Shown: positions 2,487-31,600, numbered from the stretch's first letter. The stretch: 49,311 bases of DNA from Patescibacteria group bacterium (GCA_038064775.1 JBBTSG010000006.1:32168-81478), one strand, 5' to 3'. Numbers and translations are program-made. The notes: a model not told the origin generated them from the letters alone.

Positions 2487-3218
2487 CTATATAGCTGTTG
2501 GACCGACGTACTCTACATCTTCAGAATCAAGACGACGATAAGACTTCTCGTTTTTACACTCCTCCTCAACGTGAGCTATTATACCCGGTAATCGGCCCAA
2601 AATAAAAAATGCTTTGCCAAGTCGCCAATTAAATCCAAGCTCGGAAATGATTGCAGCCACTGCCCCATCAACGTTCAATGGTAGCACCTTACCTGTCTGG
2701 CGAAACAGTTCCGACTCAATTTCCCGCGCTCGATTTAAATACTTCATGGAAAGCTTCAATTCTTGCGATTTTTTAAAAAGCGCCGTGGTTCTATGATCCT
2801 CTGTTTTATAAACCTTATGGCCATATCCGGGTAACCGTTCTTTTCTCTGAATTGAGCGCTCTACTATTACCTGTGGCGAATCAGCCGACTGGAAATAAAA
2901 AGCAGCTTTTTCAATCGCGCCACCATGCATGTCTCCTATGGCGAGAATGCCCGCGGCGATGGCCGCATTCTGAGAATTGCCGGTAGAAACTACACTTCTC
3001 GCAACAAATGCTGACGGCACCTCTATTCCATGCTCTACCATGGAAATTAAAATCGCCTCCAGCATCTTAGCCTGGTTTTTAGAGGCCTGTTTTCCCTGTA
3101 AAATAAAGAATATGGTCTCCGCCAAATTTGCATCGTCCACCAATTTAGCCAAACGAACACCTCTTATATAAAACTCCCCGTCTTTATATGAGCTGATTGC
3201 AGTTTTCCATTTCATCAC
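2487..3218 (-). CDS. Citryl-CoA lyase (citrate synthase-like domain of ATP-citrate lyase)
   Basis: EHG..PSAFVAR, GDMHGGA, LPGYGHKVYK.ED.R, PLNVDGAVAA, GRLPGIIAH; about 240 aa stand-alone citrate-synthase fold. Confidence 0.88.
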   Translation of the reverse strand: MMKWKTAISSYKDGEFYIRGVRLAKLVDDANLAETIFFILQGKQASKNQAKMLEAILISMVEHGIEVPSAFVARSVVSTGNSQNAAIAAGILAIGDMHGGAIEKAAFYFQSADSPQVIVERSIQRKERLPGYGHKVYKTEDHRTTALFKKSQELKLSMKYLNRAREIESELFRQTGKVLPLNVDGAVAAIISELGFNWRLGKAFFILGRLPGIIAHVEEECKNEKSYRRLDSEDVEYVGPTAI

Positions 3219-4123
3219 CTTATTTTCCCACGAAGTTTTTCTTTAATCAACGGTGGCACGTCTTCTAAGGTGTTTACCACATAAACTCCGGCGCGTTTTA
3301 AAGAACTTACCTTTGAGGTGTAACTACCCCTTCCTTTCATGACTATCGCGCCAGCATGCCCTAAAACCGTGCCACTCGGAAGCTTTTCTGTGAATTTCCC
3401 GGCAATCAAAGCTATTATTGGTTTTTTGAATTTTGACTTTTTTATAAATCCGGCCAGTTCTTCCTCATAAATTCCGCCCACTTCGCCGAAAATTACTATG
3501 GCGCGCGTATCGTTATCCGTACCAAAGAGTTTAACTATGTCTATAAAATCAGAACCAGAAATTTGATCACCGCCAATACCAATAACAGTGCTTTGACCCA
3601 AACCTGCGTGATTTAATGTAACTGCGATTTCTGCAACCATACCACCACTTTTAGAAATAACTCCAATTCTGCCTGGTTGAAAAATATTTTTTGGATTACT
3701 ACCGCCGATACTCCCTACTTTCCCATAACCCGGAGAAATAATACCGACAGATGATGGACCGATAATAGTTGCTTTGTTTTTTCTAGCCCAAGCAAGAATT
3801 ATCGCGGTATCCATAACCGGCACATGTTCGGTTAAAATATTTATTAGCGGGATTTTATGATTAATAGCTTCAAGCGTGGCATCTTTTACCGCAAGCGCTG
3901 GCACAACAATAAGAGACGTGTTTATGGTTGGATGTAGACGTAAGACATCTTCTACCGTGTCATAAATAGGCACTCCATAAATTATTTGACCACCCTTACC
4001 GGGCGTAACGCCAGCTAGAACCTTAGTACCATAATTCCGCATCCCCTCCATGGCACGCAACCCCTCCTTGCCAGTAATTCCCTGAATAACTACTCTTGTT
4101 TTTTTATTAACGAGAATGCTCAT
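3215..4123 (-). CDS. ATP-citrate lyase/citryl-CoA synthetase CoA-binding subunit (SucD-like); start reassigned to MSILVNKK
   Basis: VIQGITGKEG, GVTPGKGG, IIGPSSVG, SKSGGM, IGIGGD, GEVGG, phospho-His motif LGHAGA. Confidence 0.88.
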   Translation of the reverse strand: MSILVNKKTRVVIQGITGKEGLRAMEGMRNYGTKVLAGVTPGKGGQIIYGVPIYDTVEDVLRLHPTINTSLIVVPALAVKDATLEAINHKIPLINILTEHVPVMDTAIILAWARKNKATIIGPSSVGIISPGYGKVGSIGGSNPKNIFQPGRIGVISKSGGMVAEIAVTLNHAGLGQSTVIGIGGDQISGSDFIDIVKLFGTDNDTRAIVIFGEVGGIYEEELAGFIKKSKFKKPIIALIAGKFTEKLPSGTVLGHAGAIVMKGRGSYTSKVSSLKRAGVYVVNTLEDVPPLIKEKLRGKIR

Positions 4124-5198
4124 AGTTTTTCTTTTTTTTTGACAAATCAACAACTAATTTAGCGGTTTCGGACATTGGCGTCCTTGAATCAAAGATATGA
4201 AAATCATAACCCTCTTTTTCTGCCACGGCCCTTAGCATCTCCTCGGCCTCCTTTTGCCGTGGTCCATCACGCCTTATAACAAAGGGATAGTTCGGCTTTG
4301 GTTTAACGCTTCTTAAGCCATCTAAAAACCCGCGCATTGTTTCATATATATCCGTAAAGTTTGCCGTACCACCTATAACCCAACAGCCCTTGAGTCCTTT
4401 TTGCGCAAGAACACGCTTCGTTAACTCCTCAACTATTTTAGCCGGTGGATTACCGGAATATTCCACATAGTTTGCTGGACGACCGCCATAAAAAAATAAA
4501 GCGTCAATATTTAAAAGAGAGGCACCCCCACCTGATGCAAGAATTGCGATATCTCCATTTAGATTTAGAAAGCTTCGTTCGTTCGGATTTATTTTCTCAT
4601 TATCCAAAATTACTTTTGCGTCACCCGCGATGAATTGACCATTTGAAGTTTTGAGTATCGGGTTAATTTCGGCAAGTAATGCATCCTCATCTAAAAATAA
4701 TTGCCATAAATTCTTAAGTAATAGGGAAAGTGGCGGGATATCCGACGAAACAAAACCGCTTTTCTGTAACGCCTCGCGAAAAAAAAATGGTTGGACGCCA
4801 GAAACCAGATCGATGGGAAATGTTTTTGCTTTTGAAATGCCAGATCCGCCTTTTGTGGAAAGCATTAGAATTGGACTTCGCAACATTAAATCATAACTGA
4901 ACGACGCATAATATTCATTACTTGCCGTGATTTTTTCTTCGACTAGAACGCTGATAATTTTTTTACCGGAAAGACCTCTTCTTAAAAGAACTTTTAATTG
5001 TTTTTTTACTTCCGATTTGGTTTTAGCGAATAATATTCCTCCGGCCTTCTTCCTCTCTCCAAAAAGAACTTGCGCTTTTACAGCATAAGGACCAGCGAAC
5101 CGAATTTTGGTCGCCGGACTACTCGCTATAACTCGACGAGGCGTAGGAATGCTGTATTTTTCAAACAATTCCTTCCCTTGAAACTCATATAATTTCAT
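4107..5198 (-). CDS. ATP-citrate lyase ATP-grasp/citrate-binding subunit (AclB/SucC-like)
   Basis: MKLYEFQGKELF, KAQV, EINP, DAK, SGGGAS, PANYVEYSGNP; GGTANFT and IRRDGP match the ACL citrate-binding motifs (GGIANFT/RRGGP) rather than SucC (GGIVRCD). Confidence 0.85.
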   Translation of the reverse strand: MKLYEFQGKELFEKYSIPTPRRVIASSPATKIRFAGPYAVKAQVLFGERKKAGGILFAKTKSEVKKQLKVLLRRGLSGKKIISVLVEEKITASNEYYASFSYDLMLRSPILMLSTKGGSGISKAKTFPIDLVSGVQPFFFREALQKSGFVSSDIPPLSLLLKNLWQLFLDEDALLAEINPILKTSNGQFIAGDAKVILDNEKINPNERSFLNLNGDIAILASGGGASLLNIDALFFYGGRPANYVEYSGNPPAKIVEELTKRVLAQKGLKGCWVIGGTANFTDIYETMRGFLDGLRSVKPKPNYPFVIRRDGPRQKEAEEMLRAVAEKEGYDFHIFDSRTPMSETAKLVVDLSKKKKNYEHSR

Positions 5199-7003
5199 GG
5201 ATTTGTCTTAGCTTCTTTCTCCAAGTCGGTCACCATTTGTTGTTTTAGTTCCGCGGGATCCAAAAACGGATACATGTCTTCGTATGGTTTGGGCACAAAT
5301 CTGCCATCGGGTAATTTATCCGACATAGTTCTTGGCGCCAATATTTGCCACTCTGGCGTCATTACGTCACAAATTACTGGCCCATCATAACTTAAAACTT
5401 CAGCTATTTTTTCATCAATCCCGTCCACTGAATCGATTCTAACGCCTTTAATTCCGTAAGCCTCCGCTATCTTAAGAGAATCCGGACACCAAAGACCAGT
5501 AGCCGGACTCTCGCCTATTAAATGTTTGTTCATAAAATTAGCTTGACTTAGTCGCATCAATAAATATCCATTGTTATTAAAAATAAAAATCTTAAGTGGT
5601 AAATTATTGTGTTTAACGGTGGCGAGCTCCTGCAAATTCATTTGCAAACTACCATCTCCAGTGATAACAATAGTATTTTTCCTATCATTAGCCACACAAG
5701 CCCCAATTCCGGCTGCCCAGTAACCCATAGTGGAAAATCCACCAGTCGTTAAAAATTTTTGACCTTTCTTTATTTTCCATGTTTGACACGCGACATGAAA
5801 ACAGGAACCGGTATCAACTAAAATCCAATCGTCTTTTGTCGCGGCCGCGGAAAGTTTGTCAGTAAAATAATATGAGTTTACCGGTTTTTCATTCTTGTAA
5901 GAAGGTTGAACAACTGGATACTTAATTCTCCATGCCTTACATACTCTTACCCACCCTCCCCAATCCGGCAATTTTTTATCGGTAATTTCTTCAAGTAACG
6001 TTTGAAGGAATTTTTTTGCCGTGCTCTTTATTTTAAGATCAATTTCAACCCCTGGCTTGTCCAGTTCTTTTTGGTCAACGTCCACAACAATTTTTTTTGC
6101 GTTTCTTCCGAAATCTTTGGGGTTATGTCCAACTAATGACGTGGCTAATCTGCAACCAACAACTACTATTAAATCTGAATTTTGAATCGCAAAATTTGCA
6201 GCTCTTTCCCCATACGTACCCGGCCTACCAACATACAATTTATGCTCGCTATCAATTAAATCTATTGCTAAACGCGCGGTTAAAATTGGAATTTTTAGCA
6301 AATTAATAAGATTCTCGAATTCTCCCTCCGCGCTACCCAATTTTATCCCTTGCCCAACCAAGAGTATTGGTCTTTTTGCACTTAGTAACATTTGGACTAG
6401 TTCTGCGATTTGACCTTTGTCAGACGCGAACTCTTCTTCCGTTTCTTGTTCATTAAAAATCTTTGCCGGTTTTTCCGGAACTTCAGCTCTTTGTATATCC
6501 AACGGCACATCAAGCCAAACCGGACCAGGCCTGCCGTTCATGGCAAGATAATAAGCCTTCTCCAAATAATATAATAAGTTAGCGGGGTTATCGACGGTAA
6601 CAAAAAATTTAACTACGTCTTTTACTAACGGTTTTATGTTTATACCCTGGACTCCAACTTGCCGAATTTTATTTTTTTCCTGATAATCGACAAACGCTAA
6701 ATTCGTCTGTCCAGAAATAATAATCATTGGCGAAGAATCTACCCAGCCGCCAACCACGCCGTTAATAACGTTCACCGCGCCGGGCCCCGCGGTTACCATA
6801 GCAATCGCTGGCTTTTTTTTTAGCCGTCCGTAGGCTTCAGCTGCCATTCCGGCTGCCTGTTCGTGATGAGAACAAATAACCTTAATTTTCTTACTCCTAT
6901 AAATCGCGTCATTTAGAAACATGGATTGCCCACCAGCAACCATAAACACCGCCTCAACTTCTTTTTCTTCAAAAAATTTTAAAATATAATCAGCAACAAT
7001 CAT
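5195..7003 (-). CDS. ThDP-dependent acetolactate-synthase-like enzyme, YerE/ErwE type (branched-sugar acyl transferase)
   Basis: HHEQAAGMAAE, VTAGPG, RPGPVWLDVPLDIQ, TGDGSLQMNLQEL..NNNGY; glycan-locus context. Confidence 0.85.
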   Translation of the reverse strand: MIVADYILKFFEEKEVEAVFMVAGGQSMFLNDAIYRSKKIKVICSHHEQAAGMAAEAYGRLKKKPAIAMVTAGPGAVNVINGVVGGWVDSSPMIIISGQTNLAFVDYQEKNKIRQVGVQGINIKPLVKDVVKFFVTVDNPANLLYYLEKAYYLAMNGRPGPVWLDVPLDIQRAEVPEKPAKIFNEQETEEEFASDKGQIAELVQMLLSAKRPILLVGQGIKLGSAEGEFENLINLLKIPILTARLAIDLIDSEHKLYVGRPGTYGERAANFAIQNSDLIVVVGCRLATSLVGHNPKDFGRNAKKIVVDVDQKELDKPGVEIDLKIKSTAKKFLQTLLEEITDKKLPDWGGWVRVCKAWRIKYPVVQPSYKNEKPVNSYYFTDKLSAAATKDDWILVDTGSCFHVACQTWKIKKGQKFLTTGGFSTMGYWAAGIGACVANDRKNTIVITGDGSLQMNLQELATVKHNNLPLKIFIFNNNGYLLMRLSQANFMNKHLIGESPATGLWCPDSLKIAEAYGIKGVRIDSVDGIDEKIAEVLSYDGPVICDVMTPEWQILAPRTMSDKLPDGRFVPKPYEDMYPFLDPAELKQQMVTDLEKEAKTNP

Positions 7004-7008
7004 CGTTT

Positions 7009-8013
7009 TTATTGGTGTTTTTTTGACAAATTCACGGCTACATCTACAATAACATCTTCTTGACCAGCAACAACTTTTCGTTTTCCTAACTCCATAAAAA
7101 TATCTCTAGCATCAACTCCAAACTCTTCGGCCGCTTTCTTTACATGCGGAGTAAAACCAGAAAACACCCCCGCTAAACCGCTTACAATACTGATCGGGTC
7201 AATCCCTTGGAGGGTTTTCATTATCGGCTTTATTATCTCCTCGCCAGCATCCAAAAGCTTATATAGCTCTACGCCCGTATCTATCCCAGCTTTCTGCATC
7301 AAAGCCATCAAAGCTTCGAGTTGGCAATTACCCGCACCCGCCCCAAATCCCCTCACCGTGCCATCAATAATACTTGCCCCGGACTCTAAAGCGATAAAAG
7401 AATTGGCCACGGCCATACTTAAATTATTATGGGCGTGAAAGCCAACTAGAATTTTTAAATTATCCGCCAAGTGTTTAACCGTTTCCCTAACCATAAGAGT
7501 GGTGGATGAACCAGCCGAATCCATAAGCAACACGCCCTTTACGCCATAGCTTTGCATTTTTTTTGCCTCTTCTAATAATCTTTCTTTCGAAGCCATATGA
7601 TACATCATTAGAACGCCAAAAGCCTCTTTTCTTTTACTAACCACATACTCAATATGCTGCTGGGTAATATCAGCTTCCGTACAATGCGTTCCTACACAAA
7701 CCAAATCTACTCCAGCATCAAGCGCTGGAGCCAAATCATCTTTAATAGTGCCAAATCCAGGAATCAAAAAGGTTCCTAGTTTGGTTTTTTTTAACGCTTC
7801 GCGCGCCGTAGAAATTATTTCCAAATCAGAATAAGCCGAAAGTCCAACCTGAAGAGTTGAAGCACCCAAGCCATTACCGTGTCCAACAATAACAGCGTAG
7901 AGACCAGACCCGTCAACTTTTTCACAATAGCTTTTGATTGTGAGGGGGTTAATTTGGTGCCTTACTGCGTGCGACCCATCCCTTAAAGTGGAATCAAAAA
8001 AAATAGGTTTCAT
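7009..8013 (-). CDS. dmpG: 4-hydroxy-2-oxovalerate aldolase
   Basis: DSTLRDGSHAVRHQ, VGHGNGLGAS, THCTEAD, GFHAHNNL, LGKRKVVAGQED. Confidence 0.93.
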   Translation of the reverse strand: MKPIFFDSTLRDGSHAVRHQINPLTIKSYCEKVDGSGLYAVIVGHGNGLGASTLQVGLSAYSDLEIISTAREALKKTKLGTFLIPGFGTIKDDLAPALDAGVDLVCVGTHCTEADITQQHIEYVVSKRKEAFGVLMMYHMASKERLLEEAKKMQSYGVKGVLLMDSAGSSTTLMVRETVKHLADNLKILVGFHAHNNLSMAVANSFIALESGASIIDGTVRGFGAGAGNCQLEALMALMQKAGIDTGVELYKLLDAGEEIIKPIMKTLQGIDPISIVSGLAGVFSGFTPHVKKAAEEFGVDARDIFMELGKRKVVAGQEDVIVDVAVNLSKKHQ

Positions 8014-8891
8014 TTGTTTTTATATTTTTTTCTGGCGTATTCTTCTGCAACTTGTACGGCTGCGGAGGTTATTATGTCTAAGTTTCCGGAATACTCTGGT
8101 AAAAAATCGCCTAGGCCGGTCACTTCGGTGGTAATGGTAAGACGACCATTTTCGTAAGTCGGCCCCAAAATAAGCTTGTATCCAGACGCATATTTTTTGA
8201 TTTGCGCAATAATTTCTTTTATTTTTTCCTCTATTTCCTTCAATTTTGGCTTTTCAATTTCAGCGTAAATCGTATTGCGCATCCGAACCGGCGGTTCTGC
8301 CGGATTCAAAATAATAACGGCTTTTGCTTTAGGCACCCCGGAGTAATGCTCAATCGCGTCTTTGGTTGTCTGAGTATATTCATCAATGTTTGCTCGCGTA
8401 CCAGGACCAGCTGATTTAGAAGAAATTGTCGCAACGATTTCAATATATTTTATCTCCGGGTGTATTTCCATTAGAACCTTAGCTATTGGCGCCGTGGCTT
8501 GACCGCCACAAGTCACCATATTAATGTTTTCCGCGCCGATACTTTCTTCCAAGTCAATAACCGGAACGCACATTCTGCCAAACCTTGATGGAGTTAAGTC
8601 AATTACAAATTTGCCAAGTTTTTTTAAAATTGGGGCGTTAACCATATGCGCTTTCGCAGAAGTCGTGTCAAAAACAACTTCACAAATATCTGGCTCGTCT
8701 AAAATTACCTGAATTGAATCCGCAGAAGTCCTGATGCCCATCTCTTTTGCTTTTTGAATTCCTTTGGACTTAGCGTCGCGCCCGGCAAAAATACTACATT
8801 CCAAAAGATCAGACCGTCGTATCTTAAATAGCAAGTCCATCCCAATATTGCCAGTACCGATAATGCCTATTTTAACTTTTTTATTTTCCAT
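8010..8891 (-). CDS. dmpF: Acetaldehyde dehydrogenase (acylating)
   Basis: IIGTGNIG, DLTP, NMVTCGGQAT (catalytic Cys), SKSAGPGTRANIDEY, GNLDIITSAA. Confidence 0.93.
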   Translation of the reverse strand: MENKKVKIGIIGTGNIGMDLLFKIRRSDLLECSIFAGRDAKSKGIQKAKEMGIRTSADSIQVILDEPDICEVVFDTTSAKAHMVNAPILKKLGKFVIDLTPSRFGRMCVPVIDLEESIGAENINMVTCGGQATAPIAKVLMEIHPEIKYIEIVATISSKSAGPGTRANIDEYTQTTKDAIEHYSGVPKAKAVIILNPAEPPVRMRNTIYAEIEKPKLKEIEEKIKEIIAQIKKYASGYKLILGPTYENGRLTITTEVTGLGDFLPEYSGNLDIITSAAVQVAEEYARKKYKNK

Positions 8892-12056: not shown

Positions 12057-13091
12057 TTACCTCATACTCTCAAATATATCAAGAATAGACTTAACTCTAT
12101 TGATAAAAAGGTGTCCACCATTCACGATTTTCTCTTGGCCGTTTTTGGCTATGTTTTTCCGTAATAGATCGTGCTTCAAATAAAAATCTATTTTGTTTTT
12201 CATCTCATCATACGAATCGAAAAATTCTGCCTCCTTGCCTTCTTCAAGGAATTCACCAATTTTTGAAGTCCGGCTATGAAGCATGAAAGCGCCGCAAGCA
12301 GGAATTTCAAATGTGCGACAAGCCAAGGTCTCATCGTTGTGTTCCCGCACAAAAGCGAGAGCGATTTTGCTTGAATTCAAAACCTTAGACATATTGCCAC
12401 AAGACGCTTCTTTAAATTGAATACAACCTTTTTTAAAAAGACATGAGCTCTTAGGACATTTCTCCCAACTATTACCATAAATTTTTATATCATAACCCTC
12501 TCCACACAACTTTTCCATATATTCAAATCTATTCTCTTTAGCATAAGTTCCTATAAAAACAATGTCGGCGCCAAGTCGGTCTTTTTCTTCCGGTGTCACT
12601 TCGGTGGGTTTATGACAGTCGGGATCGGCGGCGCAGGTTAAAAAGATAGCTTTTTTAGCTCCAAGTTTTAATAATTCTTTTGAATTCGCGAAATTAAAGA
12701 AAAAATGACAGTCATACAAAGGAATTGATTTATAAAAATAGGTGCTACAGGTTTTTGGAAATAAAACATAATCCGGATACCAAGAAAAAACTTTCGTAAT
12801 ACCGGACAATGCTTTAACGGTTTTTGGTTTAATTAATATGGGTTTAAAGCATAAAATGAAATCGGGTTTAAAGCTCTTGACGCGTTTTATGAGTTCTTTA
12901 TTAAGTTTTCCAGTAAAGAAATAATAAGGGGTCCTAAGGAGGCGATAACTTATTTTATTTATTAAGGATGTATTAAAATATTCTTCTTGACGCACAATAT
13001 CAACCTCAATATTAAGTTTTTTAAGAGCTTTGTAAATAAAATTTATTTCTCCTCCACCTCCAGTCCATTTGCCTGTTAATAATACTTTCAT
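12057..13091 (-). CDS. CgeB-like glycosyltransferase (GT-B fold)
   Basis: DIVFIGT, IKIYGNSW, LNSSKIAL, RTFEIPACGAFML, FLEEGKEAEFF. Confidence 0.85.
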   Translation of the reverse strand: MKVLLTGKWTGGGGEINFIYKALKKLNIEVDIVRQEEYFNTSLINKISYRLLRTPYYFFTGKLNKELIKRVKSFKPDFILCFKPILIKPKTVKALSGITKVFSWYPDYVLFPKTCSTYFYKSIPLYDCHFFFNFANSKELLKLGAKKAIFLTCAADPDCHKPTEVTPEEKDRLGADIVFIGTYAKENRFEYMEKLCGEGYDIKIYGNSWEKCPKSSCLFKKGCIQFKEASCGNMSKVLNSSKIALAFVREHNDETLACRTFEIPACGAFMLHSRTSKIGEFLEEGKEAEFFDSYDEMKNKIDFYLKHDLLRKNIAKNGQEKIVNGGHLFINRVKSILDIFESMR

Positions 13092-13094
13092 GAG

Positions 13095-14342
13095 TTAAGT
13101 GTAATTAATATTATCTCTGTATTTTTTCATTAGACCAATTTTCTCCAACGCAAAAAGTATTCCATTAATATCCTCGTCGTAACTCGTTTTTTCAATAAGT
13201 TTGATTGATTCGAGAGAGAAATTTTTTCTCATCTTTGAATCAACCACAAGGTTATACAAAAACATACTCAGCTGATTAAAATTTCCACATTCAAAAATAA
13301 AACCGTTTTTACCTTCACTAACGCGATCCTTACTTGTTCCAATTACATCAGACACGATAATCGGCAAACCGAAACACATTGCTTCATTAAGGGGCATGGG
13401 GGCGGTATCTCCTAAACCAGAGGGTTGCACGTAAATATCCGCAAGAGCATAATAATTTTCAATTTCCATTTGGTCAACGAAACCGGCGAAATATACTGGC
13501 AGGTTTTTTTCTTTTGCATAAATCTCAAGGCGTTCTCGTAAAACCCCATCCCCCATAAAAACAAGAATTGCGGGTTTAGCGTTTGACTGCTTAAGTTTTT
13601 CTTGGAGTAATTCGTAGGCCATTAAAAGATCAAGCGGTCTTTTTTTGTCTATAAGCTTTCCGGAAAAAAGTATAACTACCGCATTTTCATCAATTCCTAT
13701 TTTTTTTCTAAGCTCTGGTTTCTTTCTTATCAATTTTTCTCTCTTGGCAAAAAAACGATCATTGTCTACGGCGTAGGGAAGTGAAACAAGTTTGTTCTCT
13801 GGAACGCTATAATATTTGTAGAACTTTTTATTTTCAGTACTTATGTAAAAAAATGTGGAAATAAACCTAAAAAGTGATGGAAATATAATTTTTTTTAAAG
13901 CTTTATTAAAATCTGACTTTAAAAGTTCCTGATTTAAAGGACTTTCTCCCCTTAAAAAGACTGGTAGGCCTTTTATAAAAGATGAGATAAGCGCAAGCCA
14001 CATAGTGAAAACTTGCCAACCCATAATCAAAACTGCATCGTGTTTTTTCCTTGATAGCGCGGAAATAACGCCAAGATTAATTAAGCCAAAAAACCGACTA
14101 GAGGTTTTCCAAGGATGAATATTTTTCAAAAATTCATATCTATACCCCTCGAGAAAAGATTTATCCCAAAGAACACTTTTACCAAAACCAGGATCGTAAC
14201 TTTCTTTAACTCCAAAATCCCAACAAAAATAAACCGTAAGATCAATATTCTTTTCTTGCGCTATTTTACGAAACAGTGGTACTTGAAATTCAATAGGATG
14301 TGTTGTTAAGATTGCTAATCTATAAACTTTTTCTTTATGCAT
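13095..14342 (-). CDS. Glycosyltransferase family 4
   Basis: HPIEFQVPLF, YAVDNDRF, FSGKLIDKKRPLDLL, NEAMCFGLPIIVSD. Confidence 0.9.
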   Translation of the reverse strand: MHKEKVYRLAILTTHPIEFQVPLFRKIAQEKNIDLTVYFCWDFGVKESYDPGFGKSVLWDKSFLEGYRYEFLKNIHPWKTSSRFFGLINLGVISALSRKKHDAVLIMGWQVFTMWLALISSFIKGLPVFLRGESPLNQELLKSDFNKALKKIIFPSLFRFISTFFYISTENKKFYKYYSVPENKLVSLPYAVDNDRFFAKREKLIRKKPELRKKIGIDENAVVILFSGKLIDKKRPLDLLMAYELLQEKLKQSNAKPAILVFMGDGVLRERLEIYAKEKNLPVYFAGFVDQMEIENYYALADIYVQPSGLGDTAPMPLNEAMCFGLPIIVSDVIGTSKDRVSEGKNGFIFECGNFNQLSMFLYNLVVDSKMRKNFSLESIKLIEKTSYDEDINGILFALEKIGLMKKYRDNINYT

Positions 14343-14346
14343 AAAA

Positions 14347-15426
14347 TTAGAACAAATCCGCCCAAATCACCATTGCCCGCCTAATTTTATTCCAATACTC
14401 ACCTGGATGAGGTAGTTTACTCGAGATCTCTTTATATAAATCCTTAACATTTGTCCCACTCAGATTCATTTCGTAAACTATCTGCCATAAATTCTCGTTT
14501 ATTTCTAATCCTGATCTCTCTTTTTCCAAATTAACGTATGGATCGCTCGCCCGATCATGCCAAACCACCGGATGACCAGAAGCGGCGCGGTAGTCCAAAA
14601 CATCAATAATCTTCTTCGCAAATACGCCAGCCCAAATATCATCAAATCTGTCATAACCCCACAGCTCGCCCGCTGCGTTTTTGCCCATTAACAGAAAATA
14701 CATTGCGGGCGTAAGTTCGCGCTTCCAAGCTACGTTCATTCCACACATTGGAAAAAAACTCCACCGCGGAATCATACGGTCGTGAAAATAGTGGTCGATA
14801 TGGGGAATTTCCTTCATATTTATTTGGGTCTCGGCATCCACGTCTGGCACGTTTGCCCAAAGACCATGAGAAAGCATTACTCGTTCGGAACCGAGAGGGT
14901 GCTCGAAATTTTTATGTGGGAACCCGCGAGGATTCAAATTGAGCGTCGAAGATACCCATGCCGGCTCCCGAAATTTCCTTTCAAAGAGATTGTGACGGTG
15001 AGTCTCCACGAGATCGTAAATATGATGCGCCTTGAGGTGAGCGCTATAATTCAGGGAAGGATAACAATCGTCGTCCAGAGAAATTATCATATCCGCACCA
15101 AGTTGATAGGCCTTCCAAAAACCGTAGGACTTAATAGAGCTCGAACGCCGCGGGATTATCCAATTGTCTAAACCGAGATCATTTTCAATATCTGCCCAAC
15201 TCAGATGAAGAACATTAAAATCAAGTTTTTTGTCGTCAATTCCAAAGGCCTTAACGGGATTATCCTCAACCACTACCAAAACCACCTCGTTTTTTTTAAA
15301 AATATCCTTCCATTCGTCCAAAAATCTCAAAATTGATTCTTGTCGTATAGTTGGAACAACAACGAATATTCGTGTCGTCGCTTCTTTTTGCTCTTTATGA
15401 GATTTTGTTTTTTGAACGTGAAGCAT
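14347..15426 (-). CDS. Reversibly glycosylated polypeptide (RGP)/UDP-arabinopyranose mutase family (GT75) homolog
   Basis: VVPTIR, SLDDDCYP (DxD), RGFP, SHGLWANVPDVDAETQI, FPMCGMNVAW, PAMYFLLMG, RFDDIWAG, WHDRASDPYVNLEKE occur in the same order as in plant RGP/UAM. Confidence 0.88.
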   Translation of the reverse strand: MLHVQKTKSHKEQKEATTRIFVVVPTIRQESILRFLDEWKDIFKKNEVVLVVVEDNPVKAFGIDDKKLDFNVLHLSWADIENDLGLDNWIIPRRSSSIKSYGFWKAYQLGADMIISLDDDCYPSLNYSAHLKAHHIYDLVETHRHNLFERKFREPAWVSSTLNLNPRGFPHKNFEHPLGSERVMLSHGLWANVPDVDAETQINMKEIPHIDHYFHDRMIPRWSFFPMCGMNVAWKRELTPAMYFLLMGKNAAGELWGYDRFDDIWAGVFAKKIIDVLDYRAASGHPVVWHDRASDPYVNLEKERSGLEINENLWQIVYEMNLSGTNVKDLYKEISSKLPHPGEYWNKIRRAMVIWADLF

Positions 15427-15493: not shown

Positions 15494-16741
15494 TTAAAAT
15501 TGTATGAGATGAGATAAGAGATTATTTGAATAATTCTCCCATGTGTATTTAGAAAGAGCTTGCTTCGCTTCATTAGCCGAAATAGATTTTGTATCTAAAG
15601 CAGTTTCAATCACCTTAGCCATAGAAACCGGGTCTGGACTTGCCTTAAAAAGCAATTTGTCTTTGAGTTCGCCTAAATCTCCGGAGAGGTCGTAATCAGT
15701 TGAGCAAATAACTTTTTTACTCAAAGAAAGCCCCTCCATAACAGTAAGATCGAAATCAATCCATGCGGGATGAAAAACAGCCGTGGCGCTTGCATAGAGA
15801 TCTAATAAATCTTCCTCCGCAACAAAACCGCCAAGCACTACATGACTCTCTATGTGAAGTTCTTTAATAAGCGCTTCAAGATTTTCTTTCTCCGGACCTT
15901 TACCACCCACCACAAAATAAATATCATCCCTTTTTTTCGTGAGCTCCGCTATTGTCCGGATGCAAAGATCAATGCGTTTCCCAGGAATTAGCCGACTCAC
16001 ATCAACAAACATCTTAGCGTCGGAAGGAAAACCATATTTCGCTCGCATATCTTTCTTCGGTTTATAATTAAAAAGAGAAGGGTTTATGCCGCTTTTTAAG
16101 TCAATTACGGAGCGACCGTAGAATTGTTCGTTCTCCCAGGCCATCTGCCGAGTCATAGAAAAAGTATAAATAGCCCGGCGTACCACAAAATAATTCATCC
16201 AGGCATGGCACTGCAACACTAACCTAGCGAAAAGTCCTCTTACAGGATTTTCTAAAGGAATGAAAGTTTGGTGCCCAGAAATTGAATTTCTGACCTTGGT
16301 AAAAACTCGATTGAATGGCGCCATATATTTCAGTCCGTCTTCTGGAAAATTAAAAAATGAGGCATAAAGAAAAACAGCGTAAGGAATATTCGTTCCTAAC
16401 GAGGATAAGTAAAGCAATTCCGCGTCAGCAGGATTCTGCCCTAACGTGATGTCCGGCCGGAAAGTTTTAATCTCTTTGCGAAGCTTTAGAATACTCACTA
16501 AAGAAATCCAAATTTTTTGAAGTAAGTGGTCTGGGTAATCACCTTCGTAAAAACTCGTGACAGGAATGTCCGCGTAAGCACCCTTAAAAAGGTTTTTTGT
16601 GCTGTTGCTTTTTACCACTACCATGCGTACCTCGCAGCCAGATTTTGTAAACCATTTGGCGATCTCAAACATCAACCGCTCCGCTCCGCCCTCCTGCACG
16701 AGCGCCTTCCTAAACAAAAGTATTTTTTTCTTTCTACTCAT
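15494..16741 (-). CDS. Glycosyltransferase family 4
   Basis: GGAER, VSRLIPGKRID, GGKGPE, GFV.EEDL, FDLTVMEGL. Confidence 0.85.
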   Translation of the reverse strand: MSRKKKILLFRKALVQEGGAERLMFEIAKWFTKSGCEVRMVVVKSNSTKNLFKGAYADIPVTSFYEGDYPDHLLQKIWISLVSILKLRKEIKTFRPDITLGQNPADAELLYLSSLGTNIPYAVFLYASFFNFPEDGLKYMAPFNRVFTKVRNSISGHQTFIPLENPVRGLFARLVLQCHAWMNYFVVRRAIYTFSMTRQMAWENEQFYGRSVIDLKSGINPSLFNYKPKKDMRAKYGFPSDAKMFVDVSRLIPGKRIDLCIRTIAELTKKRDDIYFVVGGKGPEKENLEALIKELHIESHVVLGGFVAEEDLLDLYASATAVFHPAWIDFDLTVMEGLSLSKKVICSTDYDLSGDLGELKDKLLFKASPDPVSMAKVIETALDTKSISANEAKQALSKYTWENYSNNLLSHLIQF

Positions 16742-20746: not shown

Positions 20747-21436
20747 TTAGACGAACGGATAAGGCATGAGTCCAGAATCTTTAAGTTGCAGTTCAATTGT
20801 TTGAATGAACGTTCTCAGAGCCGCAAATCTTGATTTTGCCATTTCAACCGCTCGAGGCAATCTAATCTGAAATCTTGAATCGGTTTCCCATTCAAGAGAA
20901 TGAAAAATATCACGAAGCACGGATTTTGGATTTTTATAATCCGCGGTAGGGTCGCTTAAGAAAAAGACAAAATCCACTGCTGGAAGGTCTGGCTGAAACT
21001 GACCAGAACGAATTACGAGATCCAACTCGATATTTACTAGACGGTCGGCATCCATCAGCGCCACAAGTATCGGACTGTCAGAATCATCATTCTTGCCGCC
21101 GTGTTTTAAAACAGCGTCAATAATTGTTTCTTTATCTGAATCTATAAAAGCCGACTCAGAAGAAAGCCATTCCAAAACCAGATCACGGATTTTATCTGCT
21201 GAAACATCACGCCGCCCAACTTTAAGCCTAGTTTGAAGAACGCGATCAGCGTTATGACAAAGCCCAGCGGCACCAGCAAGATTTCTAAAAACTTCTCCTT
21301 CGGAAACAATATAAGCGTATTGAGCTACTCTTGCCGCATGTTCAAAATCATGACCGCCTCCCGTTATTTTTTCGTCAAGATGGGTTTTACGAACCACTGC
21401 CGCAAGATTTGGAAAAATTTCCCATATCTTTTTCAC
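20747..21436 (-). CDS. HD-domain protein with HN in place of HD
   Basis: GHDFEHAARV, GLCHNADR, KH, DADRL; GTG start with SD AAAGGAG. Confidence 0.75.
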   Translation of the reverse strand: MKKIWEIFPNLAAVVRKTHLDEKITGGGHDFEHAARVAQYAYIVSEGEVFRNLAGAAGLCHNADRVLQTRLKVGRRDVSADKIRDLVLEWLSSESAFIDSDKETIIDAVLKHGGKNDDSDSPILVALMDADRLVNIELDLVIRSGQFQPDLPAVDFVFFLSDPTADYKNPKSVLRDIFHSLEWETDSRFQIRLPRAVEMAKSRFAALRTFIQTIELQLKDSGLMPYPFV

Positions 21437-21442
21437 TATAAA

Positions 21443-22000
21443 TCACTCCTTTCTTTTTTTGGCCCATAGGCCGGTTTTGTATTTTACGTCTCCCACTTTT
21501 TTTAACATCACGAGTTCGATATTACCTTTACCTACAAGCCCGGGAATATTTCCCACATGAATATATCCTGCTTTGAGATAAAGTCGCTGTCCTACAGGAT
21601 TGTCCTTACTTGTGGAAAGATATATTGTCGCAAGGTTCGGAATGCCACAAACTTCTTTTATGTATCGCACCGCAAGTTTATCGCCTTTGATAAGAAGTTT
21701 TATGCCAATGCCTTGCCCCTGCATGTTCTTACTTATGCCAATCATGTTCAAATAAACCGTGCCGTTGGTCGGGGGTTTATTCTCATAGTGAATGAAACCG
21801 ATAATCTTGTCTCCTTGTTTTGCAACAATTACGATTTCATTCTCATCATTAAGAGCTGTTCTAAAAAATCTTCGGCATTTTTCTCTGTCGAAACCCTTCC
21901 CATAATTAAAGTCCTGCGGAAATGTACCTTCGACAACGTCAATAATGCCACGCTCATCTCCCCGGATGGCTAACCGAATTTGAATTCTTCTCTTATTCAC
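21443..22000 (-). CDS. GNAT family N-acetyltransferase
   Basis: IGFIHY, LNMIGISKNMQGQGIGIKLL (motif A), N..GQRLYLKAGY. Confidence 0.85.
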   Translation of the reverse strand: MNKRRIQIRLAIRGDERGIIDVVEGTFPQDFNYGKGFDREKCRRFFRTALNDENEIVIVAKQGDKIIGFIHYENKPPTNGTVYLNMIGISKNMQGQGIGIKLLIKGDKLAVRYIKEVCGIPNLATIYLSTSKDNPVGQRLYLKAGYIHVGNIPGLVGKGNIELVMLKKVGDVKYKTGLWAKKRKE

Positions 22001-22074
22001 GTGCCTTTCCTTTCTTTTGATTCGTTATTATTTAATTAGAAAAATACTAAAAACAGTATAGCAAAGCATTGTTA

Positions 22075-22695
22075 TTATGTCAAGTTTGTAAAGTTTTTGT
22101 TTTTATAATGCTCTTTTCTTAACCAGAATAATTCTTCGGCTTTCTTTTTAGCGAAGGGGGTGACAAACCTTGAAATTCTTGTTTTCAATGTCTTTGTCAT
22201 ATATTTTTCATTATCTTTTTTATTGAATGTCGGGGTTGCCCTGGTTATATCAAGTTGCCCCAACGTGTCTGCTTCCATAAATACCAATTCATCTTTTTGG
22301 TTAAGCTTTTCAAGATTGTCGTGGACAAGAACCAAATGGCATATCCTTTCTTTTTGTCCGGCGCTTAAAAAACTAAATATCGGATCTTGCAAAAGTGCGG
22401 AGATCTTTTCCATACTTATTTGCGCATGCATGATCTTCACATTTTGAATATCTTCTCTTCCTATATAAATTCCCTTTTTGAATAGGTTTGCATACCCCCA
22501 ATCGTGAGCATAAGCAACTACAACAAGAACCGCCCGGTCCAGGTTTAAATCAAGGGTATTTTTAATAATTTCTTTTGTGTAAAAAACGACTGCTTCGGTA
22601 TGTGGCTTATCCCAATTTGGACGTCCTTGTTCGAGTTCCGGAAAAATATTTTTTTTCAAATAAGGTTCAGCTTCCTCAATTGTATTAATTCCCAT
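22075..22695 (-). CDS. HD-domain protein
   Basis: WDKPHTEAV, AYAHDWGY, HA, VHD, EADTLG. Confidence 0.8.
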   Translation of the reverse strand: MGINTIEEAEPYLKKNIFPELEQGRPNWDKPHTEAVVFYTKEIIKNTLDLNLDRAVLVVVAYAHDWGYANLFKKGIYIGREDIQNVKIMHAQISMEKISALLQDPIFSFLSAGQKERICHLVLVHDNLEKLNQKDELVFMEADTLGQLDITRATPTFNKKDNEKYMTKTLKTRISRFVTPFAKKKAEELFWLRKEHYKNKNFTNLT

Positions 22696-24861: not shown

Positions 24862-26100
24862 GTGGATATGCCAGCCATAACTAAATGTCGCTTTTGCAAA
24901 AGCATAAAATTAATTCCTTATCTTGATTTAGGGTTCACTCCGCACTCGGATCATTTTCCAACCCAAGAAGAACTAAAAGAATCGGAAACGTCTTATCCGC
25001 TTGTTGTCGTATTTTGTGGAAAATGCGGTTTAAGCCAACTTTCTTACACGGTTGACCCGCGAGAAATGTATCAGAAAGATTATCTTTATCAATCTTCAGT
25101 TACTAAAACGGGCGTAGAACATTACAATAATTTTGCCCAATCCGTCACAAAAAAACTAAATTTGGGAAAAAAAGATCTTGTGGTGGACGTTGGAAGTAAT
25201 GTCGGAGTTCTTCTCCAAGGGTTTAAAACGGCTGGCACAAAAATTTTAGGCGTAGACCCGGCGCCAAACATCGCGCGTATTGCGAATAAGCGTGGTATTC
25301 GCACTATCCCTGATTTTTTTACGCCTAAAGTTGCGAAAGATGTAGTCAAAAAATACGGTAAAGCGAAGGTTATCGTCGGCACGAATGTTTTCGCGCACGT
25401 GTTCAACCATCATGAATTCGTAAAAGCGGTTAAAATCTTAATGCAAAATAACGGAGTTTTTATTTTTGAATCGCCGCATTTTTCAAACCTTATGGAAAAT
25501 TTAGAATATGATACTGTCTACCATCAGCACCTTCTTTATCTCTCATTAAAACCTGTTATTCAATTTTTCAAGAACTATAAAATGGAGGTTTTTGATGTTG
25601 AAACTAAAAAAATTCACGGCGGTTCTTTTAGAGTTTTTATCGGCAAAAATAGCATCCACCCAATAAATAAAACGGTTAGAGCAATGCTTAAAATGGAATT
25701 AAAAGATAATATTCATTCCCTGCCGAAACTAAAAATCTTCGCCAAGCTTGTAGCAAATCACCGTGTAGAACTAAAAAATCTACTTCGGGACCTGAAACGT
25801 AAAAATAAGAGCATTGCAATTGTAAGCACGCCGGCCAAAGGCATGACGCTTTTAAATTACTGCCGAATTGGCCCGGAACTTATTGATTTTGCGACTGAAA
25901 AATCCGAGCTTAAAATTAACCGTTTCACTCCAGGCACGCACATTCCCATTCTTCCGGACTCCGAACTTTTAAAACGCCAACCTGATTACGCTCTTCTTCT
26001 CGCCTGGAACTTTGCTCCGGAAATTATGAAAAATTTAAGCGATTACAAAAAACGCGGCGGTAAATTTATTGTGCCAATTCCGAAACCTAGTATAATATAA
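24862..26100 (+). CDS. NDP-sugar C-methyltransferase (NovU/TcaB9-like; zinc-binding N-terminus, C-methyltransferase C-terminal domain)
   Basis: CRFC..CGKC Zn site, VDVGSNVG, TNVFAHV, YDTVYHQHL, IHGGSFR, PAKGMTLLNY, LLLAWNFAPEI. Confidence 0.92.
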   Translation: MDMPAITKCRFCKSIKLIPYLDLGFTPHSDHFPTQEELKESETSYPLVVVFCGKCGLSQLSYTVDPREMYQKDYLYQSSVTKTGVEHYNNFAQSVTKKLNLGKKDLVVDVGSNVGVLLQGFKTAGTKILGVDPAPNIARIANKRGIRTIPDFFTPKVAKDVVKKYGKAKVIVGTNVFAHVFNHHEFVKAVKILMQNNGVFIFESPHFSNLMENLEYDTVYHQHLLYLSLKPVIQFFKNYKMEVFDVETKKIHGGSFRVFIGKNSIHPINKTVRAMLKMELKDNIHSLPKLKIFAKLVANHRVELKNLLRDLKRKNKSIAIVSTPAKGMTLLNYCRIGPELIDFATEKSELKINRFTPGTHIPILPDSELLKRQPDYALLLAWNFAPEIMKNLSDYKKRGGKFIVPIPKPSII

Positions 26101-26104
26101 AAAT

Positions 26105-26482
26105 ATGAAAATAGATAAAAAACCGATTAATTTTGAGGACTCGCGAGGATCAATCAGAGACATTATTGTCGGACAAGACGTTGATTCGGTGACAATTATT
26201 ACCTGTAAAAAAGGTTCTGTTCGCGGTAATCACTTTCATAAAAAAAGTTCGCAATATACTTATATAGTTAAGGGGAGTTTTACTTACGCCTCAAAGAAGG
26301 ATAACAATCCTGTAGAAACAATCGAAGTGAAAGAAGGTGATCTTACGTTAAGCATTCCTAATGAACAACACGCTTTTAAGGCTCTTGAAGATTCCGTTCT
26401 TCTCCAGTTATCAAAAGGGCCTCGCCAAGGAGAAAATTACGAAAACGACACTTTTCGCCTAGAAAAACCAATTTTGGAATAA
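26105..26482 (+). CDS. Cupin (FdtA/WxcM-like sugar ketoisomerase/epimerase family)
   Basis: FEDSRGSI, RGNHFHKK, PNEQHAF. Confidence 0.78.
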   Translation: MKIDKKPINFEDSRGSIRDIIVGQDVDSVTIITCKKGSVRGNHFHKKSSQYTYIVKGSFTYASKKDNNPVETIEVKEGDLTLSIPNEQHAFKALEDSVLLQLSKGPRQGENYENDTFRLEKPILE

Positions 26483-28654: not shown

Positions 28655-31600
28655 TTAGCTACTCGACAAGGTCGTCACCTCAACCGACGGCATTATTCCA
28701 GGAATAACACCATCAATATAGAGACCAGTGGGTACGCTTGCAGAGTTTGTCGGGTTAGACGGGTAACCATAGAGATCACTACCTTTTACGTAGTAAAGAA
28801 GGTTGCCGATCGTCTGAATAGAGAACTTGAAGGTGTTGCCGTTATCCGCCGCAACGTTCGTCTTGATAATCAAGTATCTTGAAGAACCTCCAAGAATCGT
28901 TCGATTTGCTTCAGATGCAGAAATTGTGTATCCGAAAGGAACGCTTGAAGAACCAAGGGAGGTCGCCCATGTAGAAGTGCTGTAGGTGATATCAGCGCTT
29001 GAATTAGACATCTGGGAAGCATACAGCGTGTAAGCGCTAGATGTTGCCGTTGTCGTACCAGCGCCACTATTGTAGAAGGTCATACCCGTAGTGGAAGTTG
29101 AAAGATAAATCGGGGTTGCGCCGTTATTCGTAATCTTAAATGTCGCAACTGTCTGACCAGATGTTAAACCAATTATCTTTGTTGCCACCGTTGGCGAAAC
29201 TCCTGTAACAACAACACTCTGCGGTACAACGAATGAATAGCCGGTAGAAACAACCGTGCTAGCACCGGTACTGATTCCAGGTTGACCTGTCACCGTACCA
29301 GTCGTAAGTCCACTCACTGAACCCTTTACGGTCACATGAGTGCTTGAAGCAATAACGAACGCGAAGCTATTACCAAGGTCATCTATCGTGCCGACCCCAA
29401 CATCAGCTTTCACGTAAATCGTCGTGCCACTAACTGGCACCGGCGCAGTCAAAATATTATCTGACGTACCACCGACGGATGGGAAAGTAACAACGCATTC
29501 ACCGGCAATACAAGTATCAAACTGTCCTTTTGTTAATCCTGCTGGTACAAGATCGCCAGAAAGCGTGATATTCCTTAGAGTCGTCGTTGTTAAACCAGTT
29601 GAACCGGAACTTGTCGCTGTAAGCTTCAAGGAAGTAATTTTTTGCGTTTCATTAGCTGAACTCAATCTAACCGCAAACCACGTTCCTTGAGTTGCGCCAA
29701 CCGAAACCGTTTGGTTATTACTTGGTGTAGCGCCTGCGCCAGTTACGAGGTTCATATTAAGCGAACCGGAAGTAACTATAGTTTGCGCCTGACCACTACC
29801 GGCGAAACTAATATCCGTACCGTTCGTCAAACTATTACCTGTTGTCACGCCAACGGCGGTTATAGCCGATGTTGACGAAGCAACATTGAAAGTGTGTGTG
29901 ACGTTAGCGGATGTGGATGAAGCAACATTAGCCACTAAGTAAAGAGTGATTGGTGTTGCGCGGTTGACCACAATCGGCGATGAGAAATTGAAGTTTGTGG
30001 TAGCGCCGTTTGTCGCTGTTGAAGCGGTTGTTGAAAGAACTGTACCGCCACTCACTGGGTTACCTTTGTACATCACAAGACTAGTAATTCCGGTGTAATT
30101 GGAGTCACTGCTTGAATCTGATACTTTAACGGTCGTCACATTCACGTCTTCACCGCCCGCCGAAGAATTCAAAGTAATAGTGGCGAAAACATAATCGTTC
30201 GTGCCCACCACTACTGATTGGCCGGCAAGTGGCAATGATGCAAGTGTTGTCACCGTAAGAGCGGCTGCTTTAACTGAAAGCGCGAGGCCATCAGTCGCCG
30301 CCACAGTCGGATCAACGAGGTCATTTGTTACTAAACGTTTGGCTTGAATAATATCAAAGGACTTCACTTGATAACTATCAACCGCTGTCGCGGTCGAAGG
30401 AATCGAAGTTTCAACCGTTATAAAGTTATCCACGCCTTGAGTGGCAACCGGATAACTCGACAAGGTAAAGGTAGCTGCCGTAATCGGCGAAACATTGGAA
30501 CCGCCAGTGCTGTAGACAATCGCGCCGTTAAACTTCACATAAACCGTGCCGGTTAATGTTTTAGCGGCTGCAGTCGAAGTCGCAATGTAGAAACTAACCT
30601 GCCGCACTTCCATGTTCTCGCCACTCGGCCTAAAGTTGTATTTCGCTAAGAGAACATTGTTCGCGGAAGGAGTAACCGCCGCGCTTGGCGAATCAATTGT
30701 TCGCGTCAAAGTCGCCGTGCCGGTACCAATCGTCTGGATGTTGAAACCATTACCGATCGGGAACGCGGAGTCATTCGTCGCCGCCGCGCCCGGAATAACG
30801 GAGACACCGGTCGTCACGCCCATCAGATTAATATCGTAGTTGTTGTAAACCACAAGGTTAATTGTTTTTGTCGTGCCGCCGATAAGCTTCGCTTTTACGG
30901 TGAAATTTTTCGTTAACCCCTTATCAATGAAGTAAGCGGGTGTAATCGTAAAGTTTACATACTGGCCCATTGGCTGAGCAGTCGCCAAAATATTACCGGA
31001 TTGATCAAGTAACTGAACATCCGCGTAATCGCCTGCTCCCGCGTTGCCATAGTTATATAAGGTCAAAGCGGAAAAGTTTACTCCTTCATTAGAAGAGGTT
31101 TCTCGAACCTGGAATTTTGTAATTTCCTGTTGGCTCACTGGATCAACACTTAAAGAGCTTGAACCGGTTGAGGTCAAAACATCTAAAGTAGTGGAAGCTA
31201 ACGCGCTCGCGCCACTTACGATGTTCATTCCATTACCAACAATCGGGTAACTACCACCAATTGAAGTTGTGTCAGCCATAATTGCCGACGCCGAATTAAT
31301 GTTAAACGCAACCGTGCCGGTAATAGAACCTGTCACAAGGTTGAATCGCACTGTAAACGAAGTTGACTGTCCTGCCGCAACCATAATCGGGCTGCTTGGG
31401 AAAGTAATACCGATTGTGTTATCAGCGTTAATAGAAGTTATAACATTGCCGTGCCGCACACCCATGGCGTCAATAACGTCAACACCATTAAGAGATGTGT
31501 TCGCGACAAAGCCACTCTTCTGCAAAGTAACGCCTGTCACATTCACTGCTTTAGAACCAGCCGTCAAGTTAACCTTTAAAGCTGGATTGAAAGCTGTTCC

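Follow-up and report, generated by a model that had tools for sequence, protein, structure and literature searches.

How might bacteria of the candidate phyla radiation (CPR), or Patescibacteria, in which cofactor biosynthesis is generally considered limited, obtain furanose sugars for their surface glycans? Bacterial furanoses of this kind are normally credited to the flavoenzyme Glf. The question is raised by a 49,311-nucleotide stretch of DNA from a Patescibacteria group bacterium (GCA_038064775.1, JBBTSG010000006.1:32168-81478; hereafter the window, with positions counted from its first letter), in which a gene at 14347-15426 on the minus strand, amid surface-glycan genes, encodes a homolog of the plant reversibly glycosylated polypeptides (RGPs) and UDP-arabinopyranose mutases (UAMs) of family GT75. 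We think it probable that this gene specifies a flavin-independent, divalent-metal (Mn2+)-dependent mutase that interconverts the pyranose and furanose forms of a nucleoside diphosphate (NDP)-sugar and thereby feeds the surface glycan. Supply of an NDP-furanose for this purpose had been proposed in an earlier note on this DNA, which was made from the sequence alone, and it is the predicted function that our results support best.

The interval 14347-15426 holds one unbroken open reading frame (ORF) of 359 amino acids, whose sole Pfam match is to RGP (PF03214), with 130.9 bits (E 8e-38, against a gathering cutoff of 23.8) and an alignment that spans residues 20-358 of the protein and positions 6-336 of the 342 in the profile. 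The earlier note had asserted a match to the RGP/UAM family over the full length and had suggested a search with the RGP/GT75 profile as a check, and the search, significant and above the curated cutoff, bears it out. No NCBIfam model matches the protein. Judged by profile, fold and catalytic residues together, this is a genuine GT75/RGP homolog. Residues 1-18 (15373-15426; MLHVQKTKSHKEQKEATT) are modeled with low confidence, and most homologs begin near residue 19, although a similar Lys-rich N-terminal extension is found in a relative that is 59% identical. We found no clear Shine-Dalgarno sequence upstream of the ATG, and scans for promoters, terminators and ribosome-binding sites around the gene gave counts near those of shuffled background.

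The predicted structure leads to the same family. An AlphaFold2 model built from a 30-sequence alignment had a mean pLDDT (predicted local distance difference test) of 93.3 and a pTM (predicted template-modeling score) of 0.91, with low confidence confined to the first ~18 residues, and it displays the predicted architecture of a GT75 enzyme, comprising a GT-A-like Rossmann N-terminal domain, the unique core and a C-terminal helical region. When the model was compared with the PDB using Foldseek, the top seven matches were exclusively MtdL (best E 9e-23, or about 1e-22; template-modeling [TM] score 0.73) and rice UAM2 (OsUAM2, PDB 8cid; E 1.4e-20, TM 0.72-0.75), and the next matches were generic GT-A enzymes with E of at least 1e-6 and TM of at most 0.43. 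MtdL (from Marinactinospora, in the A201A pathway) and Hyg20 (from Streptomyces, in hygromycin A biosynthesis) are bacterial GT75 enzymes that act as GDP-L-galactose/GDP-L-fucose pyranose mutases and are represented by PDB 7xpr and other entries (PMC9937993).

Every sequence motif that the earlier note had listed is present, and in a joint alignment these motifs match class-1 plant and algal UAMs, for which we used database entries (among them Raphanus UAM2, Miscanthus UAM1, Physcomitrium and Chlamydomonas eustigma) retrieved with an approximate Arabidopsis RGP1 sequence. The aligned motifs are PTIR (at 15343-15354 on the minus strand, the strand of all positions in the gene, each of which was confirmed by translation), DDDC, RG[YF]P, SHGLW-N-PD-DA-TQ, FPMCGMN, PAMYF-LMG, R-DD-WAG and H--AS-P-VNL-KE, with the fourth and the last three appearing in our protein as SHGLW..PDVDAETQ, PAMYFLLMG, RFDDIWAG and HDRASDPYVNLEKE. 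Conservation was counted in 255 full-length prokaryotic homologs.

In MtdL, the Mn2+ ligands are D111 and H287, the nucleophile is R159, D195 is also catalytic, D260 is the proposed general base, R257 binds the beta-phosphate and R289 lies in loop A, and mutating the catalytic residues, or their equivalents in AtRGP2, abolishes mutase activity (PMC9937993). Our protein is identical to MtdL at all of these positions. DDDC (15064-15075), which aligns with MtdL D109-D111 and with plant DDDC, provides the putative DXD motif for Mn2+ and diphosphate (D118-D120, followed by C121), with D118 and D119 conserved in 249 and D120 in 254 of the 255 homologs. PRGFP (14917-14931) contains R167, the counterpart of the autoglycosylated or nucleophilic Arg (OsUAM1 R158, MtdL R159), and both R167 and G168 are invariant (255/255), as is D195 (MtdL D195, AtRGP2 D182) in a third DxD, D195-V-D197 (14836-14844). 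The strand expected to line the sugar pocket, FPMCGMN (14734-14754), is identical to that of class-1 plant UAMs, with C228 conserved in 220, G229 in 198, M230 in 252 and N231 in 251 homologs. R260-F-D-D263 (14638-14649) would supply the Arg that binds the beta-phosphate and the candidate general-base Asp (MtdL R257 and D260; R260 in 251/255 and D263 in 255/255), and H290-D-R292 (14551-14559) the His that coordinates Mn2+ and the loop-A Arg (MtdL H287 and R289; H290 in 254/255). Thus, the counterparts of the residues required by mutagenesis in MtdL or AtRGP2 (D109/D111, R159, D195, R257, D260 and H287) are 98-100% conserved. At the positions aligned with the hydrophobic dimer interface of MtdL (L295/L298/V302) and AtRGP2 (F280/L283/Y287), our protein has Y297, L300 and R304, of which two are hydrophobic.

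The assignment of R167 as the nucleophile depends on which of two plant arginines is the one that becomes glycosylated. In OsUAM1, Arg158 is the autoglycosylation site, and Arg165 is a second Arg that is essential for mutase activity in the rice and barley enzymes (PMC6861824). Because residue counting on 8cid places the Asp of the DYD motif (position 182) 24 residues after the Arg of RGYP, Arg158 is the Arg of RGYP, and Arg165 is that of FSLREG. Likewise, R159 of MtdL, which lies in PRGFP, has been equated with the autoglycosylated plant Arg (PMC9937993). The earlier note was therefore right that the Arg of plant RGYP is retained, as R167 in PRGFP, but it had swapped the roles of the two arginines when it took the Arg of FSLREG for the autoglycosylated one and reported the latter as apparently replaced. 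With the nucleophilic Arg kept, the case for catalytic competence is stronger than that reading had allowed.

By analogy with MtdL and the plant UAMs, the enzyme would be cytosolic, and Mn2+ held by D118-D120 and H290 would bind the diphosphate of an NDP-pyranose, the beta-phosphate of which would be held by R260 and R292. D263, assisted by D195, would then activate R167 for an attack on C1 that forms a transient Arg-sugar adduct, whose ring would open and reclose through O4 before release of the NDP-furanose. One of the glycosyltransferases presumed to be co-transcribed with the gene (two of family GT4 and one with a Glyco_trans_1_2 domain) would place the furanose residue into the CPR cell-surface glycan.

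How closely does the protein resemble enzymes already described? With class-1 plant and algal UAMs (RGP1-3, OsUAM1/3) it is co-linear over its full length, with about 32% identity over ~329 aligned positions, and it retains the mutagenized positions of AtRGP2 (S91 as S96, G216 as G229, D182 as D195 and D246 as D263). It departs from them at the class-1 DGD, which appears as D-N with a one-residue deletion (EDNP), and at plant D90, which is replaced by S95. The class-1 enzymes are cytosolic or Golgi-associated and serve the plant cell wall, whereas our protein is bacterial and encoded in an operon-like setting amid surface-glycan genes.

MtdL, which is bacterial, Mn2+-dependent and flavin-free, is the best structural match and has identical catalytic and metal-binding residues, but its sequence aligns with ours only over a 241-residue core (residues 90-343 of our protein, 29% identity), and its N-terminal nucleotide-binding region gave no HMMER alignment. 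The residues with which the MtdL/Hyg20 subgroup binds guanine and the sugar (T13, N42, S86-D87 and N227-S228-Q229) are P25, N56, S95-S96 and C228-G229-M230 in our protein, such that the pocket formed in MtdL by D87 and N227-S228-Q229 (in CPVNSQN) corresponds to S96 and C228-G229-M230. MtdL and Hyg20 act in actinomycete antibiotic clusters, whereas our gene lies in a CPR cell-surface glycan cluster. A profile made from the prokaryotic homologs matched rice UAM2 end to end with 147 bits, its best sequence match, and MtdL with 128.8 bits over the core only. As for Glf, the UDP-galactopyranose mutase (UGM) flavoenzyme, it catalyzes the same type of reaction, from NDP-pyranose to NDP-furanose, in the same usual setting of bacterial surface-glycan clusters, but it has an unrelated fold and a flavin adenine dinucleotide cofactor, and our protein shows neither sequence nor structural similarity to it. 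No Glf was found among the ORFs of the window that we scanned with Pfam, and no UGM appeared among the Foldseek matches of the protein.

In another reading, the protein would be a non-catalytic structural or regulatory partner of the class-2 type, or the product of a decaying gene. Plants do retain inactive paralogs, AtRGP5 and OsUAM2, that lack mutase activity (PMC9937993, PMC6861824), and these class-2 RGPs have the same fold and length as our protein (25% identity for OsUAM2), which moreover has no counterpart of Arg165. However, in the class-2 protein of 8cid the DDD motif reads DDN, and Thr and Arg occupy the places of the phosphate-binding Arg and the Mn-binding His, respectively; because ours keeps DDD, R260 and H290, it is not of the inactive class-2 type. 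Nor does the window contain a second GT75 gene whose product could serve as the partner, and decay is at odds with an intact ORF, an identical protein on several contigs and a predicted fold of high confidence. We consider a non-catalytic role highly improbable.

If the protein is a mutase, is it an isolated plant-like oddity in a bacterial genome? The earlier note had implied as much, and this rarity was overstated: in addition to the characterized MtdL and Hyg20, bacterial and archaeal GT75 members are already listed in CAZy (PMC9937993, PMC6861824). A word-indexed search returned 834 homologs at E <= 1e-5, nearly all of them unnamed, and when 1.84 billion representative proteins were searched exhaustively with a profile, 2,266 metagenomic clusters were found at E <= 1e-3, with 623 at E <= 1e-30. 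In GTDB species genomes we confirmed 156 GT75 loci and kept 79, all of which (79/79) came from metagenome-assembled genomes (MAGs) and none from a cultured isolate, which may be the reason that no member has yet been assayed. These 79 loci represented CPR (19), Gammaproteobacteria (15), Planctomycetota (13) and Chloroflexota (10), with the remainder from Acidobacteriota, Bacteroidota/Melioribacteraceae, Actinomycetota, Dormibacterota, others and one Thermoplasmata archaeon, for a total of at least ten phyla.

In a neighbor-joining tree, the prokaryotic proteins grouped in a clade of their own with 93/100 bootstrap support, distinct from that of plants and algae (100/100) and separate from MtdL; with a single partial MtdL sequence as outgroup, such a tree does not decide between plants and MtdL as the sister of the prokaryotic clade. 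The closest relatives of our protein are other Patescibacteria. Had the gene been acquired horizontally and recently from a plant or an alga, along with UDP-L-arabinopyranose mutase function, this might have accounted for the full-length architecture and for pocket motifs (DDDC, FPMCGMN and S96) that resemble those of class-1 plant UAMs. Identity to the plant and algal enzymes is only ~32%, though, and because the prokaryotic clade is distinct, spans CPR, Planctomycetota, Gammaproteobacteria, Chloroflexota, Acidobacteriota and an archaeon, and because the GC content of the gene is near that of the window (0.43 versus 0.405), such a transfer is very unlikely, to the point of being almost negligible. 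The label 'plant-type' that the protein had been given in the earlier note is therefore apt for its full-length architecture, which is like that of rice UAM2, and misleading if taken to mean plant-derived.

What do these genes do in their genomes, and on what sugar? In about 60 genome loci, we surveyed the genes lying up to 6 kb from the GT75 gene. The most recurrent neighbors were GT2-family glycosyltransferases in 24 loci, mostly immediately downstream and on the same strand, and short-chain dehydrogenase/reductase (SDR) epimerases/dehydratases in 15, and further recurrent neighbors were GT4 enzymes, a second GT2, a GT1-like protein, an ABC-2 exporter pair, WecG/TagA and methyltransferases. 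All of these are cell-surface glycan functions. When compared with NCBIfam, none of the SDR neighbors reached an equivalog cutoff, their matches being generically GalE/RmlB-like, and the only one that could be named, through PDB matches, was in a gammaproteobacterial MAG (locus L058, 9986-13700). There, the GT75 gene, which has the plant-like loop RGYPYLSR, is directly followed by genes for a UDP-glucuronate decarboxylase (UDP-xylose synthase, UXS), which matches human UXS1 with 399 bits, and for a GalE/WbgU-type 4-epimerase, and by a short ORF resembling UDP-glucose dehydrogenase (UGDH). Going by their predicted products, these genes make up the complete route to UDP-L-arabinopyranose, the substrate of the plant enzymes, and with the GT75 gene a plant-like UDP-L-arabinofuranose pathway in a single operon.

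Short ORFs resembling UGDH or GDP-mannose dehydrogenase (233-274 amino acids) were observed in four loci (L002, 3280-4104; L008, 4498-5199; L058, 12897-13700; and L083, 5826-6350), and in the close CPR relatives L002 and L083 they precede the GT75 gene. Their matches cover no more than the N-terminal and central portions of Ugd structures 390-480 amino acids long, and they may be truncated through assembly or ORF calling or else represent a genuine short form.

In the window itself, the GT75 gene lies within a same-strand run that forms an operon-like GT4-GT75-GT4-GT block. The earlier note had placed the gene between two GT4 genes, both of which were identified as such by Pfam. The upstream GT4 gene (15494-16741, minus strand, 415 amino acids; Glycos_transf_1/Glyco_transf_4) is 67 nucleotides from the GT75 gene, the downstream GT4 gene (13095-14342, minus strand, 415 amino acids; same domains) is separated from it by a 4-nucleotide gap, and after a further 3-nucleotide gap follows a Glyco_trans_1_2 or WaaS/CpsH-like glycosyltransferase (12057-13091, minus strand, 344 amino acids), identified by Pfam and NCBIfam. 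The GT4-GT75-GT4-Glyco_trans_1_2 block, with a similar cluster around it, is kept in the closest relative (59% identity; contig L082), and synteny is limited to that relative, with only weak matches to the two GT4 genes across the family. An identical GT75 protein with the same neighbors is found on independent metagenome contigs from Hainich groundwater, and the ClpB encoded in the window shares 70-77% identity with proteins from Patescibacteria, including Jorgensenbacteria and Paceibacterota, which marks the host as a CPR bacterium. The surrounding surface-glycan cluster (1533-28523, mainly minus strand) encodes a Wzy_C protein, Gmd, methyltransferases, a GNAT protein, two DegT-family enzymes, a GFO/IDH/MocA oxidoreductase, an SDR of the dTDP-glucose-4,6-dehydratase type (241 bits to 6bi4), an RfbH-like protein and a thiamine pyrophosphate (TPP) enzyme, among others.

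The leading candidates for the substrate may be UDP-L-arabinopyranose or UDP-galactopyranose, because the pocket is plant-like (S96 and C228-G229-M230) and because the gene of a relative adjoins the complete UDP-L-arabinopyranose pathway; a GDP- or dTDP-6-deoxyhexose made by the Gmd or RmlB-like enzymes of the cluster may come second. Two other approaches to the substrate were abandoned. The choice between UDP and GDP could not be read from the positions of MtdL T13, N42 and S86, at which our protein is mixed (P25 is plant-like, N56 and S95 are MtdL-like); these positions are not predictive, because the GT75 protein of L058 has the MtdL-like 'TD' pair yet adjoins a UDP-xylose/UDP-arabinose pathway. 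A GDP-sugar route with Gmd as the conserved partner was also discarded, as no Gmd ortholog occurred within 10 kb in ~60 other loci.

Several observations count against mutase activity, and we weighed them together. The most serious concerns the second plant Arg. In place of FSLR(165)EG of plants, the protein has the loop HKNFEH (residues 171-176; 14899-14916, minus strand), and in the resulting RGFPHKNFEH the alignment places K172 at +5, Phe at +7 and H176 at +9 from the nucleophile, such that the counterpart of OsUAM1 Arg165 is absent. An Arg at +7 is found both in plants (RGYPFSLR) and in MtdL (RGFPFHAR, R166). Within the prokaryotic clade, 198 of the 255 homologs have an Arg in the loop (at +7 in 91 and at +9 in 92), and 57, including our protein, have none. 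In the sub-clade of our protein (33 homologs with at least 50% identity), position +9 is Arg in 21 and otherwise Lys, Asp, His, Glu, Ile or Gln, and it is thus weakly constrained. Members with Arg-less loops may either dispense with this Arg or not be mutases; in our protein, K172 or R182 might conceivably take its place. As far as alignment can tell, the second Arg is the sole defining feature of the active plant enzymes that the protein fails to show, and it is mainly because of its absence that we regard mutase activity as no more than probable. The genomic setting adds to these doubts: the window contains no obvious pathway to UDP-arabinose or UDP-galactose, no furanosyltransferase of the GT2 type adjoins the GT75 gene, and Gmd is not a conserved neighbor elsewhere. 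Moreover, enzymes of family GT4 are not known to act as furanosyltransferases.

The same missing Arg, together with the position of the gene between glycosyltransferase genes, might favor a protein that is mainly a glycosyltransferase, using self-glycosylation of R167 as a primer or carrier or transferring sugar to another acceptor, such as an Arg of another protein or the growing glycan; the earlier note had offered a transferase as its alternative. GT75 enzymes have a GT-A-like fold with a DXD motif and autoglycosylate an Arg, and AtRGP2 with UDP-glucose shows transferase activity only, with no mutase activity (PMC9937993). However, glycosylation of an external acceptor is not known for any GT75 member (PMC9937993, PMC6861824), and in both characterized groups autoglycosylation is seen as a part or side reaction of the mutase cycle (PMC9937993). 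Furthermore, the residues that are invariant in the clade coincide exactly with the mutase set, and the relative beside a complete UDP-L-arabinopyranose pathway fits the supply of a mutase substrate. None of our results points specifically to a transferase, and we think one rather improbable.

A bolder version of the mutase proposal would make the MAG-only GT75 clade the main furanose route in many uncultivated lineages, including CPR, with the member in the window acting on an NDP-sugar outside the known range of GT75 (neither UDP-arabinose or UDP-galactose nor GDP-fucose or GDP-galactose) and, as a corollary, with plant UAM descending from this prokaryotic lineage. This member lacks the 'essential' second Arg and lies in a cluster that makes deoxy, amino and possibly branched sugars. 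We hold this version to be speculative and on the whole unlikely.

In the literature we found no characterized prokaryotic GT75 protein from a surface-glycan locus, the only characterized bacterial ones being MtdL and Hyg20 of actinomycete antibiotic pathways. What is new here is an uncharacterized member, and clade, of a known enzyme family, and because family, fold and mechanism are already known for bacterial and plant members (MtdL, Hyg20 and the plant enzymes), the advance is incremental. Even so, a flavin-free GT75 alternative to Glf, typically embedded in surface-glycan loci, is widespread in uncultivated bacteria. If these enzymes are active, annotation should name the members of this clade, most of which are entered as 'hypothetical protein' and for which NCBIfam offers no model, and CPR bacteria would be expected to carry glycans that contain furanoses. 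An active clade would also offer cofactor-free enzymes for the production of NDP-furanoses, which are difficult to synthesize, and would bear on the origin of the arabinofuranose pathway of the plant cell wall.

Other features of the glycan cluster deserve mention. Between the RfbH-like gene and the SDR gene, six genes resembling those of central metabolism lie inside the sugar cluster (2487-8891, minus strand). Part of this set encodes a protein like the C-terminal part of citrate synthase, a CoA-ligase and an ATP-grasp_2 protein with a citrate-binding domain, which together resemble ATP-citrate lyase or citryl-CoA enzymes, and the remainder encodes a TPP enzyme like acetolactate synthase, an HMGL/DmpG-like aldolase and a DmpF-like acetaldehyde dehydrogenase. 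These genes may serve branched-chain or acylated sugar chemistry (yersiniose/YerE-like), something that would be out of the ordinary in a CPR genome. In the relative on contig L082, a TPP enzyme and a DegT protein also adjoin the glycosyltransferase block. On the plus strand, against the direction of the other cluster genes, a gene for a sugar C-methyltransferase (Methyltransf_13/14) precedes one for a 125-amino-acid FdtA/WxcM-like cupin of the 3,4-ketoisomerase type (24862-26482), a pair that suggests a C-methylated or 3-amino deoxysugar. A gene for a GNAT acetyltransferase is flanked within the cluster by those of two HD-domain proteins (20747-22695, minus strand). Just beyond the cluster, the minus strand of 28655-32113 encodes a 1,152-amino-acid protein whose sole Pfam match is an N-terminal peptidoglycan-binding domain, and which lies in the most GC-rich part of the window (0.44-0.49, compared with 0.40 overall).

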